Positions 1-31,487 of a DNA stretch of 64,000 bases are shown here, piece after piece. The stretch is from Escherichia coli. Lineage in GTDB: Bacteria > Pseudomonadota > Gammaproteobacteria > Enterobacterales > Enterobacteriaceae. Both the position numbers and the translations under genes were made by a program. The stretch lies in NCBI RefSeq assembly GCF_002854065.1, contig NZ_CP024147.1. One strand, given 5' to 3'. Each line of letters begins with the position of its first letter. Within the stretch, counting starts at the first letter, position 1. The notes below the pieces were generated by a model that worked only from the letters and a program-made list of their open reading frames with translations, ran no database searches and had not been told where the DNA came from.

Positions 1-21
1 ATTTGTGGACTAAATCTAGTT

Positions 22-38
22 TTGGAAAAATATTCCAA
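22..38. promoter_or_regulatory. AllR operator-like palindrome TTGGAAaaatatTTCCAA upstream of allA
   Basis: Near-perfect inverted repeat TTGGAA/TTCCAA in the region upstream of allA; same half-sites recur before gcl. Confidence 0.5.
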
Positions 39-143
39 CTTTTGTATTGATGTTGTTCTCTTAAGGTTTTAGATTGCCTGTTATTGAAACCAAGCTGACC
101 GGTCGGCGGTGGTTGAACGGAATTATGTTACAAGGACAAAAAG

Positions 144-626
144 ATGAAACTTCAGGTATTACCGTTAAGTCAGGAAGCCTTTAGTGCTTATGGCGACGTA
201 ATCGAAACGCAGCAACGGGATTTTTTCCATATTAACAATGGCCTGGTGGAGCGTTACCACGATTTGGCGCTGGTTGAGATTCTTGAGCAAGACCGTACGC
301 TTATCAGCATTAACCGCGCGCAACCGGCGAATCTGCCGCTGACCATTCACGAACTCGAACGTCATCCGCTGGGTACTCAGGCCTTTATCCCGATGAAAGG
401 TGAGGTGTTTGTGGTGGTCGTGGCGTTAGGTGACGACAAACCAGACCTGTCAACCCTGCGGGCGTTTATTACCAACGGCGAACAGGGAGTGAATTACCAT
501 CGTAACGTCTGGCATCACCCACTTTTCGCCTGGCAGCGCGTCACCGATTTTCTGACCATCGATCGCGGCGGCAGTGACAACTGTGATGTTGAAAGTATTC
601 CTGAACAGGAACTCTGTTTTGCGTGA
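144..626 (+). CDS. allA: ureidoglycolate lyase
   Basis: 160-aa ORF recognised as AllA; located immediately upstream of allR as in E. coli. Confidence 0.9.
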
Positions 627-703
627 CGCCTGCAACCGACTTGCATAAGATAAACTAATTGTTCATTGTTTATGCTCACTTGTAGGTCGGAGTTAACGTA
701 GGT

Positions 704-1519
704 ATGACGGAAGTTAGACGGCGCGGCAGGCCAGGACAGGCGGAGCCTGTGGCACAGAAGGGCGCACAGGCATTAGAGCGGGGAATTGCGATTCTGCAAT
801 ATCTGGAAAAAAGTGGGGGAAGTTCGTCGGTTAGCGATATTTCTCTCAATCTGGATTTGCCGCTCTCCACGACCTTTCGCTTGCTGAAGGTTTTACAGGC
901 AGCGGATTTTGTCTATCAGGACAGTCAGTTAGGCTGGTGGCATATAGGATTAGGTGTCTTTAACGTCGGTGCAGCGTACATCCATAACCGCGATGTCCTC
1001 TCCGTCGCCGGGCCGTTTATGCGCCGCCTGATGTTACTTTCCGGCGAAACGGTCAATGTCGCGATCCGTAACGGCAATGAAGCGGTATTAATTGGTCAGT
1101 TAGAGTGTAAATCGATGGTCAGGATGTGCGCGCCACTGGGCAGTCGTCTGCCACTGCATGCTTCCGGTGCGGGCAAAGCGCTGCTTTATCCGCTGGCGGA
1201 AGAGGAGTTGATGAGCATCATTCTGCAAACCGGTTTGCAGCAGTTTACGCCAACTACGCTTGTGGATATGCCCACCCTGCTGAAGGACCTGGAACAAGCG
1301 CGTGAACTGGGCTATACCGTAGATAAAGAAGAGCATGTTGTAGGCCTGAATTGCATAGCTTCAGCAATTTATGACGATGTCGGTAGTGTTGTTGCCGCTA
1401 TCTCCATCTCCGGGCCTTCATCAAGACTGACAGAAGATCGTTTTGTCAGTCAGGGTGAGCTGGTCAGAGACACCGCCCGCGATATCAGCACGGCGTTGGG
1501 ACTGAAAGCACATCCATAA
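704..1519 (+). CDS. allR: IclR-family repressor of the allantoin regulon
   Basis: 271-aa ORF recognised as AllR; synteny allA-allR-gcl. Confidence 0.9.
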
Positions 1520-1531
1520 TGTCTGTCGCAT

Positions 1532-1556
1532 CCCGCTCTGCGGAGCGGGTTTTTTT
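1532..1556 (+). terminator. rho-independent terminator after allR
   Basis: Stem CCCGCTC/GAGCGGG with 4-nt loop followed by TTTTTTT. Confidence 0.6.
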
Positions 1557-1571
1557 GACAAAATTTGAAAG

Positions 1572-1588
1572 TTGGAAAATTTTTCCAA
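1572..1588. promoter_or_regulatory. AllR operator-like palindrome TTGGAAaatttTTCCAA in gcl promoter
   Basis: Inverted repeat TTGGAA/TTCCAA about 20 nt upstream of the gcl start; matches site at 22-38. Confidence 0.55.
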
Positions 1589-1608
1589 TTAATAGAGGTA
1601 GGAATAAA

Positions 1609-3390
1609 ATGGCAAAAATGAGAGCCGTTGACGCGGCAATGTATGTGCTGGAGAAAGAAGGTATCACCACCGCCTTCGGTGTTCCGGGAGCTGCAATCAA
1701 TCCGTTCTACTCAGCGATGCGTAAGCACGGCGGTATTCGTCACATTCTGGCGCGTCATGTGGAAGGTGCTTCGCACATGGCGGAAGGTTATACCCGCGCA
1801 ACGGCAGGGAATATCGGCGTATGTCTGGGGACTTCCGGTCCTGCGGGCACGGACATGATCACCGCGCTCTATTCTGCTTCTGCTGATTCCATTCCTATTC
1901 TGTGCATTACCGGCCAGGCTCCGCGCGCCCGTCTGCATAAAGAAGATTTTCAGGCCGTAGATATTGAAGCAATTGCTAAACCGGTCAGCAAAATGGCGGT
2001 TACAGTACGTGAAGCGGCGCTGGTGCCTCGCGTGCTGCAACAGGCATTTCACCTGATGCGTTCTGGTCGTCCGGGTCCGGTACTGGTGGATTTACCGTTC
2101 GACGTTCAGGTTGCGGAAATCGAGTTTGATCCTGACATGTACGAACCGCTGCCGGTCTACAAACCTGCTGCCAGCCGTATGCAGATCGAAAAAGCTGTAG
2201 AAATGTTAATCCAGGCCGAACGTCCGGTGATTGTTGCCGGGGGCGGGGTAATCAATGCTGACGCAGCTGCACTGTTACAACAGTTTGCTGAACTGACCAG
2301 CGTTCCGGTGATCCCAACGCTGATGGGCTGGGGCTGTATCCCGGACGATCATGAACTGATGGCCGGGATGGTCGGTCTGCAAACCGCGCATCGTTACGGT
2401 AACGCAACGTTGCTGGCGTCCGACATGGTGTTTGGTATCGGTAACCGTTTTGCTAACCGTCATACCGGTTCGGTAGAGAAATACACCGAAGGGCGCAAAA
2501 TCGTTCATATCGATATTGAGCCGACGCAAATTGGTCGCGTGCTGTGTCCGGATCTCGGCATTGTCTCTGATGCTAAAGCGGCGCTGACACTGCTGGTTGA
2601 AGTGGCGCAGGAGATGCAAAAAGCGGGTCGTCTGCCGTGTCGTAAAGAATGGGTCGCCGACTGCCAGCAGCGCAAACGCACTTTGCTGCGCAAAACCCAC
2701 TTCGACAACGTGCCGGTGAAACCGCAGCGCGTGTATGAAGAGATGAACAAAGCCTTTGGTCGCGATGTTTGTTATGTCACCACCATTGGCCTGTCACAAA
2801 TCGCTGCGGCACAAATGCTGCATGTCTTTAAAGACCGCCACTGGATCAACTGTGGTCAGGCTGGTCCGTTAGGCTGGACGATTCCGGCGGCGCTGGGGGT
2901 TTGTGCCGCTGATCCGAAACGCAATGTGGTGGCGATTTCTGGCGACTTTGACTTCCAGTTCCTGATTGAAGAGTTAGCCGTTGGCGCGCAGTTCAACATT
3001 CCGTACATCCATGTGCTGGTGAATAACGCCTATCTCGGCCTGATTCGTCAGTCACAACGCGCCTTTGACATGGACTACTGCGTGCAACTCGCTTTCGAGA
3101 ATATCAACTCCAGCGAAGTGAACGGTTACGGCGTCGACCACGTAAAAGTAGCGGAAGGTTTAGGTTGTAAAGCGATTCGCGTCTTCAAACCGGAAGATAT
3201 TGCACCGGCCTTTGAACAGGCGAAAGCCTTAATGGCGCAATATCGGGTACCGGTAGTCGTGGAAGTTATTCTCGAGCGTGTGACCAATATTTCGATGGGC
3301 AGCGAACTGGATAACGTCATGGAATTTGAAGATATCGCCGATAACGCAGCGGATGCACCGACTGAAACCTGCTTCATGCACTATGAATAA
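1609..3390 (+). CDS. gcl: glyoxylate carboligase (tartronate-semialdehyde synthase)
   Basis: 593 aa from [18 protein letters not shown]; ThDP-enzyme; track ORF 1519 start rejected because terminator and operator lie inside the extension. Confidence 0.92.
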
Positions 3391-5157: not shown

Positions 5158-5325
5158 TACCCGCAATAAAAATGGCCGATATCAGAAAATGAATCGGCCA
5201 GCAATATTAAAAAAGAAAGCAGCCAAAGATGTTGCTTCAGTATTAAAAATAATATTTTTATTTTATTTGTTCCTCATAGCTAGATTAAAACAACGTTATT
5301 CGATACGTGAAATTAAGAGGGATTT

Positions 5326-6780
5326 ATGGAACATCAGAGAAAACTATTCCAGCAACGCGGCTATAGCGAAGATCTATTGCCGAAAACGCAAAGCCAGCGG
5401 ACCTGGAAAACATTTAACTATTTTACCTTATGGATGGGTTCGGTTCATAACGTTCCCAATTATGTGATGGTCGGCGGCTTTTTTATTCTCGGCTTGTCTA
5501 CCTTTAGTATTATGCTGGCAATTATCCTCAGCGCCTTTTTCATTGCCGCGGTAATGGTATTAAACGGCGCTGCGGGCAGTAAATACGGCGTACCGTTTGC
5601 CATGATCCTGCGTGCTTCTTACGGCGTACGTGGCGCACTGTTTCCCGGATTATTAAGAGGCGGTATTGCTGCCATTATGTGGTTTGGCCTGCAATGTTAC
5701 GCGGGGTCACTGGCCTGCTTGATTCTGATTGGCAAAATCTGGCCGGGATTTTTGACTCTCGGTGGTGATTTCACTCTATTAGGCCTTTCTCTACCGGGCT
5801 TAATTACTTTCTTACTCTTCTGGCTGGTCAACGTTGGTATAGGTTTTGGCGGTGGCAAAGTTTTAAATAAATTCACTGCCATTCTTAACCCGTGCATCTA
5901 TATCGTTTTCGGCGGTATGGCGATTTGGGCGATTTCGCTGGTCGGGCTCGGTCCAATCTTTGACTACATTCCGAGCGGTATTCAGAAAGCAGAAAACAGT
6001 GGATTCTTGTTCCTGGTGGTGATTAACGCGGTAGTTGCGGTCTGGGCGGCACCGGCGGTGAGCGCATCCGACTTTACGCAAAACGCCCACTCGTTTCGTG
6101 AGCAAGCGCTGGGGCAAACGCTGGGTTTAGTTGTGGCCTATATTCTGTTTGCGGTCGCTGGGGTATGTATTATTGCCGGAGCCAGTATTCACTACGGCGC
6201 TGACACCTGGAACGTGCTGGATATTGTTCAGCGTTGGGACAGCCTGTTTGCCTCGTTCTTTGCGGTACTGGTTATTCTGATGACGACCATTTCCACTAAC
6301 GCCACCGGTAATATTATTCCGGCCGGTTATCAGATTGCTGCCATTGCACCGACAAAACTGACCTATAAAAACGGCGTACTGATTGCCAGTATTATCAGCC
6401 TGCTGATCTGCCCGTGGAAATTAATGGAAAATCAGGACAGTATTTATCTGTTCCTCGATATCATCGGCGGAATGCTGGGTCCGGTAATTGGTGTCATGAT
6501 GGCGCATTATTTTGTGGTGATGCGTGGGCAAATTAATCTTGATGAACTGTACACCGCACCTGGCGATTATAAATATTACGATAACGGTTTTAACCTCACC
6601 GCGTTTTCAGTAACTCTGGTGGCCGTTATTTTATCTCTTGGCGGTAAGTTTATTCCCTTTATGGAACCGTTATCGCGTGTTTCATGGTTTGTCGGCGTCA
6701 TCGTCGCCTTTGCGGCCTACGCCTTATTAAAGAAACGTACAACAGCAGAAAAAACAGGAGAGCAAAAAACCATAGGTTAA
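5326..6780 (+). CDS. ybbW: allantoin permease (NCS1 family transporter)
   Basis: 484-aa polytopic membrane ORF recognised as YbbW/AllW. Confidence 0.85.
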   Translation: MEHQRKLFQQRGYSEDLLPKTQSQRTWKTFNYFTLWMGSVHNVPNYVMVGGFFILGLSTFSIMLAIILSAFFIAAVMVLNGAAGSKYGVPFAMILRASYGVRGALFPGLLRGGIAAIMWFGLQCYAGSLACLILIGKIWPGFLTLGGDFTLLGLSLPGLITFLLFWLVNVGIGFGGGKVLNKFTAILNPCIYIVFGGMAIWAISLVGLGPIFDYIPSGIQKAENSGFLFLVVINAVVAVWAAPAVSASDFTQNAHSFREQALGQTLGLVVAYILFAVAGVCIIAGASIHYGADTWNVLDIVQRWDSLFASFFAVLVILMTTISTNATGNIIPAGYQIAAIAPTKLTYKNGVLIASIISLLICPWKLMENQDSIYLFLDIIGGMLGPVIGVMMAHYFVVMRGQINLDELYTAPGDYKYYDNGFNLTAFSVTLVAVILSLGGKFIPFMEPLSRVSWFVGVIVAFAAYALLKKRTTAEKTGEQKTIG

Positions 6781-6839
6781 TTAATCCCGATATTGAACAT
6801 TGAGTTAAAAACCAATCTGTATTTTACAAGGAGTTTGTT

Positions 6840-27331: not shown

Positions 27332-29941
27332 ATGAAAATACCCACTACTACGGATATTCCGCAGAGGTATACCTGGTGTCTGGCCGGAATTTGTTATTCA
27401 TCTCTTGCCATTTTACCCTCCTTTTTAAGCTATGCGGAAAGTTATTTCAACCCGGCATTTTTATTAGAGAATGGCACATCCGTTGCTGATTTATCGCGCT
27501 TTGAGAGAGGTAATCATCAACCTGCGGGCGTGTATCGGGTGGATCTCTGGCGTAATGATGAGTTCATTGGTTCACAGGATATCGTATTTGAATCGACAAC
27601 AGAAAATACAGGTGATAAATCAGGTGGGTTAATGCCCTGTTTTAACCAGGTATTCCTTGAACGAATTGGCCTTAATAGCAGTGCATTTCCCGAGTTAGCC
27701 CAGCAGCAAAACAATAAATGCATCAATTTACTGAAAGCTGTACCTGATGCCACAATTAACTTTGATTTTGCAGCGATGCGCCTGAACATCACGATTCCTC
27801 AGATAGCGTTGTTGAGTAGCGCTCACGGTTACATTCCGCCTGAAGAGTGGGATGAAGGTATTCCTGCTTTACTCCTGAATTATAATTTCACCGGTAACAG
27901 AGGTAATGGTAACGATAGCTATTTTTTTAGTGAGCTCAGCGGGATTAATATTGGCCCGTGGCGTTTACGCAACAATGGTTCCTGGAACTATTTTCGCGGA
28001 AATGGATATCATTCAGAACAGTGGAATAATATTGGCACCTGGGTACAGCGCGCCATTATTCCGCTGAAAAGTGAACTGGTAATGGGAGACGGCAATACAG
28101 GAAGTGATATTTTCGATGGCGTTGGATTTCGTAGTGTACGGCTTTACTCTTCCGATAATATGTATCCTGATAGCCAGCAGGGGTTTGCCCCAACGGTACG
28201 TGGGATTGCCCGTACGGCGGCCCAGCTAACGATTCGGCAAAATGGTTTTATTATCTATCAAAGCTATGTTTCCCCCGGCGCTTTTGAAATTACAGATTTG
28301 CACCCGACATCTTCAAATGGCGATCTGGACGTCACCATCGACGAACGCGATGGTAATCAGCAGAATTACACAATTCCGTATTCAACAGTGCCAATTTTAC
28401 AACGCGAAGGGCGTTTCAAATTTGACCTGACGGCGGGCGATTTTCGTAGCGGTAATAGTCAGCAATCATCGCCTTTCTTTTTTCAGGGCACGGCACTCGG
28501 CGGTTTACCACAGGAATTTACTGCCTACGGCGGGACGCAATTATCTGCCAATTACACCGCCTTTTTATTAGGGCTGGGGCGCAACCTCGGGAACTGGGGC
28601 GCAGTGTCGCTGGATGTGACCCATGCGCGCAGCCAGTTAGCCGACGACAGTCGTCATGAGGGGGATTCCATTCGCTTCCTCTATGCGAAATCGATGAACA
28701 CCTTCGGCACCAATTTTCAGTTAATGGGTTACCGCTATTCGACACAAGGTTTTTATACCCTTGATGATGTTGCGTATCGTCGAATGGAGGGGTACGAATA
28801 TGATTACGATTACGACGGTGAGCATCGCGATGAACCGATAATCGTGAATTACCACAATTTACGCTTTAGCCGTAAAGACCGTTTGCAGTTAAATATTTCA
28901 CAATCACTTAATGACTTTGGCTCGCTTTATATCTCTGGTACCCATCAAAAATACTGGAATACTTCGGATTCAGATACCTGGTATCAGGTGGGGTATACCA
29001 GCAGCTGGGTTGGCATCAGTTATTCGCTCTTATTTTCGTGGAATGAATCTGTAGGGATCCCCGATAACGAACGTATTGTCGGACTTAATGTTTCAGTGCC
29101 TTTCAATGTTCTGACCAAACGTCGCTACACCCGGGAAAATGCGCTCGACCGCGCTTATGCCTCCTTTAACGCCAACCGTAACAGCAACGGGCAAAATAGC
29201 TGGCTGGCAGGCGTTGGTGGGACCTTACTGGAAGGCCACAACCTGAGTTATCACGTAAGCCAGGGCGATACTTCGAACAATGGGTACACGGGCAGCGCCA
29301 CGGCAAACTGGCAGGCCGCTTACGGTACGCTGGGGGTCGGGTATAACTACGACCGCGATCAACATGACGTTAACTGGCAGCTGTCTGGTGGTGTGGTCGG
29401 ACATAAAAATGGCATAACGCTGAGCCAGCCTTTAGGGGATACCAATGTTTTGATTAAAGCGCCTGGCGCAGGCGGTGTACGCATTGAAAATCAAACTGGC
29501 ATTTTAACCGACTGGCGCGGCTATGCGGTGATGCCGTATGCCACGGTTTATCGGTATAACCGTATCGCGCTTGATACCAATACGATGGGGAATTCCATCG
29601 ATGTTGAAAAAAATATTAGCAGCGTTGTGCCGACGCAAGGCGCGTTGGTTCGTGCCAATTTTGATACCCGCATAGGCGTGCGGGCGCTCATTACCGTTAC
29701 CCAGGGCGGAAAACCGGTGCCGTTTGGATCACTGGTACGGGAAAACAGTACCGGAATAACCAGTATGGTGGGTGATGACGGGCAAGTTTATTTAAGTGGT
29801 GCGCCATTGTCTGGTGAATTACTGGTTCAGTGGGGAGACGGCGCGAACTCACGCTGCATTGCGCACTATGTATTGCCGAAGCAAAGCTTACAGCAAGCCG
29901 TCACAGTTATTTCGGCAGTTTGCACACATCCTGGCTCATAA
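27332..29941 (+). CDS. sfmD: fimbrial outer membrane usher
   Basis: 869-aa usher ORF, FimD-like. Confidence 0.9.
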
Positions 29942-29953
29942 AGGAAATTATCA

Positions 29954-30961
29954 ATGAAGATAATCTGCAGATTATTATTGGCGATGGCATGTTTGTGTCT
30001 GGCAAACATATCCTGGGCTACTGTTTGTGCAAATAGTACTGGCGTAGCAGAAGATGAACACTATGATCTCTCAAATGTCTTTAATAGCACCAATAACCAG
30101 CCAGGGCAGATTGTTGTTTTACCGGAAAAATCCGGCTGGGTAGGTGTGTCAGCAATTTGTCCACCCGGCACGCTGGTGAATTATACATACCGTAGTTATG
30201 TCACTAACTTTATTGTTCAGGAAACTATCGATAATTATAAATATATGCAATTAAATGATTATCTATTAGGTGCGATGAGTCTGGTTGATAGTGTGATGGA
30301 TATTCAATTTCCCCCGCTAAATTATATTCGTATGGGAACAGATCCTAACGTTTCGCAAAACCTTCCGTTCGGGGTGATGGATTCTCGTTTGATATTTCGT
30401 TTAAAGGTTATTCGGCCCTTTATTAACATGGTGGAGATCCCCAGACAGGTGATGTTTACCGTGTATGTGACATCAACGCCTTACGATCCGTTGGTTACAC
30501 CTGTTTATACCATTAGTTTTGGTGGCCGGGTTGAAGTACCGCAAAACTGCGAATTAAATGCCGGGCAGATTGTTGAATTTGATTTTGGTGATATCGGCGC
30601 ATCGTTATTTAGTGCGGCAGGGCCGGGTAATCGACCTGCTGGTGTCATGCCGCAAACCAAGAGCATTGCGGTCAAATGTACGAATGTTGCTGCGCAGGCT
30701 TATTTAACAATGCGTCTGGAAGCCAGTGCCGTTTCTGGTCAGGCGATGGTGTCGGACAATCAGGATTTAGGTTTTATTGTCGCCGATCAGAACGATACGC
30801 CGATCACGCCTAACGATCTCAATAGCGTTATTCCTTTCCGTCTGGATGCAGCTGCGGTAGCCAATGTCACACTTCGCGCCTGGCCTATCAGTATTACCGG
30901 TCAAAAACCGACCGAAGGGCCGTTTAGCGCGCTGGGGTATTTACGCGTCGATTATCAATGA
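29954..30961 (+). CDS. sfmH: fimbrial adhesin-like subunit
   Basis: 335-aa ORF with signal peptide; FimH-like position after usher. Confidence 0.8.
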   Translation: MKIICRLLLAMACLCLANISWATVCANSTGVAEDEHYDLSNVFNSTNNQPGQIVVLPEKSGWVGVSAICPPGTLVNYTYRSYVTNFIVQETIDNYKYMQLNDYLLGAMSLVDSVMDIQFPPLNYIRMGTDPNVSQNLPFGVMDSRLIFRLKVIRPFINMVEIPRQVMFTVYVTSTPYDPLVTPVYTISFGGRVEVPQNCELNAGQIVEFDFGDIGASLFSAAGPGNRPAGVMPQTKSIAVKCTNVAAQAYLTMRLEASAVSGQAMVSDNQDLGFIVADQNDTPITPNDLNSVIPFRLDAAAVANVTLRAWPISITGQKPTEGPFSALGYLRVDYQ

Positions 30962-30971
30962 GGTACGGAGA

Positions 30972-31487
30972 ATGAGAAGAGTATTCTTTAGCTGTTTCTG
31001 CGGGTTAATGTGGAGTTCCAGTGGATGGGCAGCTGACCCTTTAGGAACGATTAATATCAATTTGCACGGTAACGTTGTTGATTTCTCCTGTACCGTAAAC
31101 ACAGCGGATATTGATAAGACGGTAGATTTAGGCAGATGGCCTACGACACAATTACTGAACGCTGGCGATACCACGGCACTCGTCCCTTTTAGCCTGCGGC
31201 TGGAGGGATGTCCTCCGGGTTCAGTTGCGATTTTATTTACGGGAACGCCGGCATCTGATGCCAACCTGCTGGCTCTGGATGATCCCGCAATGGCACAAAC
31301 CGTTGCCATCGAATTACGTAATAGCGATCGCTCCCGGCTCGCACTGGGGGAGGCGAGCCCGACTGAGGAAGTAGATGCAAATGGCAATGTCACACTAAAC
31401 TTTTTTGCCAATTATCGAGCGTTAGCCAGCGGTGTTCGGCCAGGTGTGGCGAAAGCGGATGCGATATTTATGATCAATTATAATTAA
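30972..31487 (+). CDS. sfmF: fimbrial minor subunit
   Basis: 171 aa from MRRVFFSCFCGLMW; FimF/G-like. Confidence 0.8.
   Translation: MRRVFFSCFCGLMWSSSGWAADPLGTININLHGNVVDFSCTVNTADIDKTVDLGRWPTTQLLNAGDTTALVPFSLRLEGCPPGSVAILFTGTPASDANLLALDDPAMAQTVAIELRNSDRSRLALGEASPTEEVDANGNVTLNFFANYRALASGVRPGVAKADAIFMINYN

Follow-up and report, generated by a model that had tools for sequence, protein, structure and literature searches.

Gene order and features of the locus

The window analysed here, a stretch of 64,000 nucleotides, is a segment of the E. coli chromosome whose left edge falls between allS and allA; allA, allR and gcl come next (Table 1). Over its first 1.7 kb it matches E. coli chromosomes with 100% identity, and 5,404 of the 5,426 complete genomes contain the region. 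According to the RefSeq annotation of identical DNA, allS lies directly to the left in divergent orientation and is cut off by the window edge; with the full sequence taken from an identical genome, the allS-allA intergenic region measures 229 bp. Both HTH_IclR and IclR_C are found by Pfam in AllR, and its effector domain corresponds to PDB 1TF1 (E=2e-110), so that a gene for a cognate IclR-family repressor is present at the locus itself. One of the strains with 100% identity over the first 1.7 kb, CUWW06 (NZ_CP182139.1), is not collinear with the window beyond ~5 kb, the differences being located at ~5200-6800, ~29000-31000 and ~35000-60000. This strain carries an IS5 in ybbW, a gene that is intact in the window (5326-6780), together with IS1 copies, and is devoid of ~25 kb present in the window between the intD/rusA prophage remnant and cusC.

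An intrinsic terminator separates allR from the gcl promoter and also forms the 3' end of the small RNA AllZ, which has been verified by northern blot (PMC8175672). The terminator folds with -14.8 kcal/mol (z=-2.9), and its stem varies with compensatory changes. In Table S1 of Kim et al. 2012 a transcription start assigned to gcl is located 284 nt upstream of the gcl ATG; this start maps to approximately position 1325 of the window, and is the 5' end of AllZ within allR, not the AllR-controlled promoter of gcl.

A long open reading frame (1519-3390) begins at an ATG overlapping the allR stop codon and thereby adds 90 nt (1519-1608) to the gcl reading frame, an extension that holds the allR terminator, putative promoter elements and the second of the two palindromes described below. 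The initial annotation had placed this palindrome inside the extension and had favoured the downstream start at 1609, and both statements hold: the RefSeq start of gcl is the same, the crystallised Gcl chains in the PDB align from residue 31 of the long frame, and 17 of the 19 non-Escherichia orthologs have an in-frame stop 6-57 nt before a conserved ATG-GCA-AAA-ATG. The true start of gcl at 1609 is accordingly well supported.

Table 1. Genes and regulatory features at the left end of the window (positions refer to the window unless stated otherwise).
Feature	Position	Strand	Basis
Putative allS -10, TATCAT	10-15 bp left of window start (L001 2985-2990)	-	Conserved alignment blocks
Putative allS -35, TTTAGT	9-14	-	Conserved alignment blocks
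Box 1, AllR operator of the divergent allS-allA control region, TTGGAAAAATATTCCAA (TTGGAA-AAATA-TTCCAA)	22-38	none	Pattern match, motif, conservation
Putative allA promoter: -35 TTGATG (47-52), 17-bp spacer, -10 TAGATT (70-75)	47-75	+	Sequence and hexamer conservation
allA, ureidoglycolate lyase, target gene of box 1	144-626	+	RefSeq annotation; Pfam Ureidogly_lyase
allR, IclR-family repressor reading the boxes	704-1519	+	RefSeq; Pfam HTH_IclR and IclR_C; PDB 1TF1
AllZ sRNA, 3' part of allR and terminator	~1322-1556	+	K-12 annotation b4831, 533629-533863
allR intrinsic terminator (stem 1532-1549 and T-run), also 3' end of AllZ	1532-1556	+	Terminator scan, fold, compensatory changes
Putative gcl -35, TTGACA, 11 bp upstream of box 2	1555-1560	+	Sequence; TTG at fixed distance from box in orthologs
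Box 2, AllR operator of the gcl operon promoter, TTGGAAAATTTTTCCAA (TTGGAA-AATTT-TTCCAA)	1572-1588	none	Pattern match, motif, conservation
gcl Shine-Dalgarno region, GAGGTAGGA	1595-1603	+	Sequence; GAGGTAG conserved in most orthologs
gcl, glyoxylate carboligase, first gene of the box 2-controlled operon	1609-3390	+	RefSeq; PDB alignment; in-frame stops in orthologs

Two palindromes and their conservation

Two 17-bp palindromes with identical half-sites and a 5-bp spacer in each, as reported in the initial annotation, are indeed present in the sequence, one in the allS-allA region (box 1) and one within the 90-nt extension (box 2). The string first written down for box 1, TTGGAAaaatatTTCCAA, contains one extra letter, although its coordinates and spacer length were right, and the symmetry had been understated: box 2 is a perfect 8-1-8 palindrome (TTGGAAAA-T-TTTTCCAA), and in box 1 seven of the eight positions of each arm are symmetric. 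The pattern TTGGAANNNNNTTCCAA (TTGGAA-N5-TTCCAA) was searched on both strands of the 64 kb and has exactly two matches, boxes 1 and 2; no match occurred in any of 100 dinucleotide-preserving shuffles. Allowing up to two mismatches added a single match, at 59430, within a TolC-family open reading frame adjoining cusF, which corresponds to chance level (3.6 expected). On a symmetrised weight matrix derived from 40 orthologous sites, boxes 1 and 2 score 26-29 bits, the next match reaches 15.7 bits and the best of 50 shuffles 17.1. Many IclR-family regulators have a second, tandem box 18-22 bp from the main box. Inspection by eye revealed no such tandem AllR box at this distance from either palindrome, and the sole candidate in the flanks among the top 15 matrix matches (1554-1570, 3.2 bits) lies ~17-18 bp from the main box. 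Neither the allD-allF (fdrA) control region nor any other part of the allantoin cluster yielded a further AllR box in the same matrix scan, in agreement with PMC12535856.

Conservation of the palindromes was assessed in 22 enterobacterial loci obtained from a scan with the AllR protein (66-100% identity, one genome per species), representing Escherichia, Citrobacter, Klebsiella, Raoultella, Superficieibacter, Buttiauxella, Izhakiella, Atlantibacter and Providencia; allS, allA, allR, gcl and hyi were mapped in each locus by tblastn, and boxes were then searched. In all 20 loci containing both regions, whose AllR orthologs are 66-91% identical, a single box occurs in the allS-allA spacer and another shortly upstream of gcl, and the two partial loci each have the one box that their sequence spans. 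The 40 boxes of the complete loci comprise 36 exact copies and four with one mismatch, and ~170 kb of sequence flanking the loci contain five matches with two mismatches and none with one or fewer. In the alignment of the allS-allA spacer (19 taxa) column identity is 0.96 in the box against 0.58 in the rest, the corresponding values for the allR-gcl spacer (20 taxa) being 0.94 and 0.68, and no other 17-mer of either spacer is as conserved as the box. The boxes are thus kept at orthologous positions. Their twelve half-site positions are conserved at 0.99-1.00 (0.996 half-site identity for the gcl box in 20 taxa), and the five central positions vary while staying A/T-rich. The record labelled 'Chryseobacterium sp. 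18061' (L011) contains an enterobacterial allS-allA-allR-gcl locus nearly identical to that of 'Citrobacter sp. 18056' (L023) from the same study; mislabelling or contamination of this assembly is the probable reason.

The centre of the allS-allA box keeps a nearly constant distance to the allA ATG (110-115 bp in 18 of the 19 loci), and that of the gcl box lies 21-36 bp from the gcl ATG. In Providencia rettgeri (L022, 3117-3440) the allS-allA spacer is ~100 bp longer, with box 1 at 215 bp from allS, compared with 86-116 bp elsewhere, and still at 110 bp from allA. Since all of the extra length is found on the allS side, box placement appears to be tied to the allA promoter, and the control of allS may differ in Providencia.

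Within E. coli, the allS-allA intergenic region of the window is identical to that of K-12 at 229 of 229 bases, box 1 included. The gcl box differs from that of K-12 MG1655 at its centre (1580), where T in the window strain stands against A in MG1655; each allele is the exact reverse complement of the other, and the symmetry is unchanged. The two strains differ again 2 bp beyond the downstream end of the box (1590, T in the window and A in K-12). Of the E. coli gcl upstream regions sampled, the most divergent one retains an intact box among five flanking changes. In strain A8 (L028), of a divergent lineage with 92.7% identity over 55 aligned bp, the allS/allA box is TTGGAAAAATATCCCAA, with the half-site variant TCCCAA; 71 genomes are found in the 90-95% identity band.

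Other blocks of the allS-allA region are also conserved across genera, namely TGTGG (4-8), AAATC (12-16), TTGATG (47-52) and GGTTTTAGATTG (65-76), as well as CTGATTTATCAGTATTTTTACATGATA just left of the window (L001 2958-2990). Some of these may be read as promoter hexamers. Because nitrogen and anaerobic control of allS have been reported (PMC12535856), other regulators might bind at TGTGG-N6-TC and at the upstream block.

Assignment of the palindromes to AllR

The AllR motif is given as KTTGGAAWAWTWTTCCAAC in PMC8222616, which cites Rintoul et al. 2002. Box 1 with its flanks (21-39, TTTGGAAAAATATTCCAAC) agrees with this motif at 19 of 19 positions, and box 2 with its flanks (1571-1589, GTTGGAAAATTTTTCCAAT) at 18 of 19, the last flanking base alone being different, so that both boxes conform to the consensus. 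In addition, AAATCTAGTTTTGGAAAAATATTCCAACTTTTGTATT is given as the AllR recognition site, after Rintoul 2002, in PMC13300388, and positions 12-48 of the window are identical in every letter to this 37-bp sequence. The initial annotation had called for a comparison with published AllR footprints; box 1 coincides with the experimentally defined recognition sequence as quoted there, and box 2 corresponds to a published site by location only, a location upstream of gcl that secondary sources, PMC12535856 among them, support. According to PMC12535856, AllR binds at the gcl operon promoter as well as in the control region between allS and allA, and glyoxylate is the inducer. Furthermore, a 2025 preprint shows that the AllR site in front of gcl is occupied by protein in vivo, and a 2025 ChIP-seq/BLI study (BoltzNet) treats AllR as a factor of high specificity with a small number of strong sites. 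Direct binding of AllR, relieved by glyoxylate, is attributed to Rintoul 2002, Walker 2006 and Hasegawa 2008 by later papers that cite them. The operators described for E. coli K-12 (Rintoul et al. 2002, J Mol Biol 324:599) are associated with the same genes, at the same positions, as the boxes of the window, which lie in the allS-allA intergenic region and in the gcl promoter of the allantoin gene cluster. Hence, the palindromes almost certainly serve as operators for the IclR-family repressor AllR, whose gene lies between them. The proposal that they serve repression of allA and gcl by AllR therefore fits the motif match, the sequence quoted from Rintoul, ortholog conservation and the literature.

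The operator of the paralogous regulator IclR at aceBAK and iclR resembles the AllR boxes in several respects, since it is likewise an A/T-rich palindrome with a TGGAA/TTCCA core, overlaps a promoter and is read by a glyoxylate-responsive repressor of the same family. We may ask, therefore, whether the palindromes are bound mainly by IclR, the closest solved paralog of AllR (E=1e-44), in particular as their cores TGGAAAATTTTTCCA and TGGAAAAATATTCCA agree with 12 and 11, respectively, of the 14 specified positions of the IclR motif, TGGAAATNATTTCCA. Nevertheless, the bases flanking the centre are consistently unlike that motif (AAA-N-TTT or AAA-N-TAT as opposed to AAT-N-ATT), the AllR boxes add an outer T/A pair that is invariant, and in all genomes sampled they are accompanied by allR and the target genes. 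The gene context is also different: the boxes are found at allS/allA and gcl, in allantoin/glyoxylate catabolism, rather than at an aceBAK or iclR promoter of the glyoxylate bypass, and the literature assigns the sites to AllR on the basis of footprinting, ChIP and BLI. Binding mainly by IclR is, on these grounds, very unlikely, even though the similarity of the two motifs is such that some cross-recognition of the AllR boxes by IclR may occur.

A role of the palindromes as RNA hairpins, in a leader or an attenuator, instead of as DNA operators, is scarcely credible. The gcl box would form a small hairpin as RNA (-7.1 kcal/mol, z=-2.2), but both box hairpins (-4.4 and -7.1 kcal/mol) are weak beside the neighbouring allR terminator, and the terminator scan calls neither box, its only call in the region being 1532-1549. 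In the box arms five of the six pairs never vary and no compensatory change is observed, in contrast to the terminator stem, which compensates in the same alignment; this invariance does not by itself disprove RNA pairing. However, the same sequence is found at two non-homologous loci, and box 1 is located upstream of both putative divergent promoters, where it is probably not transcribed, which together point to a sequence-specific reader of DNA. As for chance palindromes without function, which are common in A/T-rich intergenic DNA and whose level is indeed reached in the two-mismatch search, the probability is close to nil, given two exact matches where the shuffles yield none, and this reading is effectively refuted by the retention of both boxes at orthologous positions across genera while the surrounding spacers drift to 58-68% column identity.

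Putative promoter geometry and repression by AllR

The operator reading can be set against the promoters of the three target transcription units. The putative allA promoter scores below the threshold of the consensus scan, and its assignment, like that of the allS promoter, relies on conserved hexamers. Box 1 would be centred ~52 bp upstream of both the allA and the allS starts, adjoining both -35 elements, and the 37-bp recognition sequence reaches into both putative -35 hexamers, which would fit a single site that hinders the polymerase at both divergent promoters. Rintoul and colleagues are said to have found, as early as 2002, that a single AllR site in the allS-allA region keeps RNA polymerase from either divergent promoter. 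Other repressor sites formed by a single palindrome are shared by divergent promoters, where one symmetric site between back-to-back promoters controls both genes, as is likewise the case for box 1; in contrast to other such sites, box 1 appears to be placed at ~-52, beside both -35 hexamers, and not over a -10 element or a start.

At gcl, TTGACA is a perfect -35 hexamer that abuts the T-run of the allR terminator, and the box lies 6 bp upstream of the Shine-Dalgarno region. Judging from the position of this -35, the -10 element and the transcription start would be located inside or at the edge of box 2, and the -10 proposed within the box is a poor match to the consensus. A sigma-70 promoter with this TTGACA must put its -10 and start in or at the box, and therefore bound AllR would exclude RNA polymerase. 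The only promoter called by the consensus scan, TTTCCA-17-TAAAAT, overlaps the gcl start codon and was rejected because it leaves no leader or Shine-Dalgarno sequence. In the genome-wide table of transcription starts of Kim et al. 2012, obtained under non-inducing conditions, no start is listed at the box-proximal, AllR-controlled promoters, which are in the repressed state in such cells.

Most probably, the invariant TTGGAA half-sites on either side of the A/T-rich 5-bp centre are recognised by an AllR dimer, either free or as part of a tetramer, each half-site being contacted by one wHTH of the dimer. From box 1, midway in the 229-bp region between the putative back-to-back promoters, AllR represses the activator gene allS as well as allA, and from box 2 it would keep RNA polymerase off the promoter that serves the gcl-hyi-glxR-...-glxK operon. 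According to the literature, AllR leaves the DNA in the presence of glyoxylate, and the genes are induced.

The location of the first site upstream of allA, as proposed in the initial annotation, is correct and yet incomplete, in that the site is shared with the divergent allS. Similarly, the two sites had been described as paired, and two operators do exist, but the term is not to be taken as cooperation, because they are independent and 1.55 kb apart. The distance between the boxes is 1,541-1,636 bp in all genera sampled, with no conserved helical phase. A loop in which tetrameric AllR bridges the operators and couples allS/allA to gcl, or, separately, an occlusion of the upstream and -35 contacts of both promoters by a mirror-symmetric box 1 at ~-52, is an unlikely elaboration of the operator reading, the support for which is limited to geometry, with the operators bracketing allA-allR.

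Control of allS, allA and the gcl operon by AllR has been known since 2002, and in biological terms nothing new emerges from the present analysis, whose additions are confirmatory. With regard to annotation, two genuine operators, both characterised by experiment, and the true start of gcl were identified from the sequence alone. The small additions consist of a footprint conserved from Escherichia to Providencia, of natural alleles that allow a flip of the central base (A/T) while the half-sites are invariant, one divergent E. coli strain excepted, and of what appears to be a symmetric placement of box 1 between the divergent promoters.
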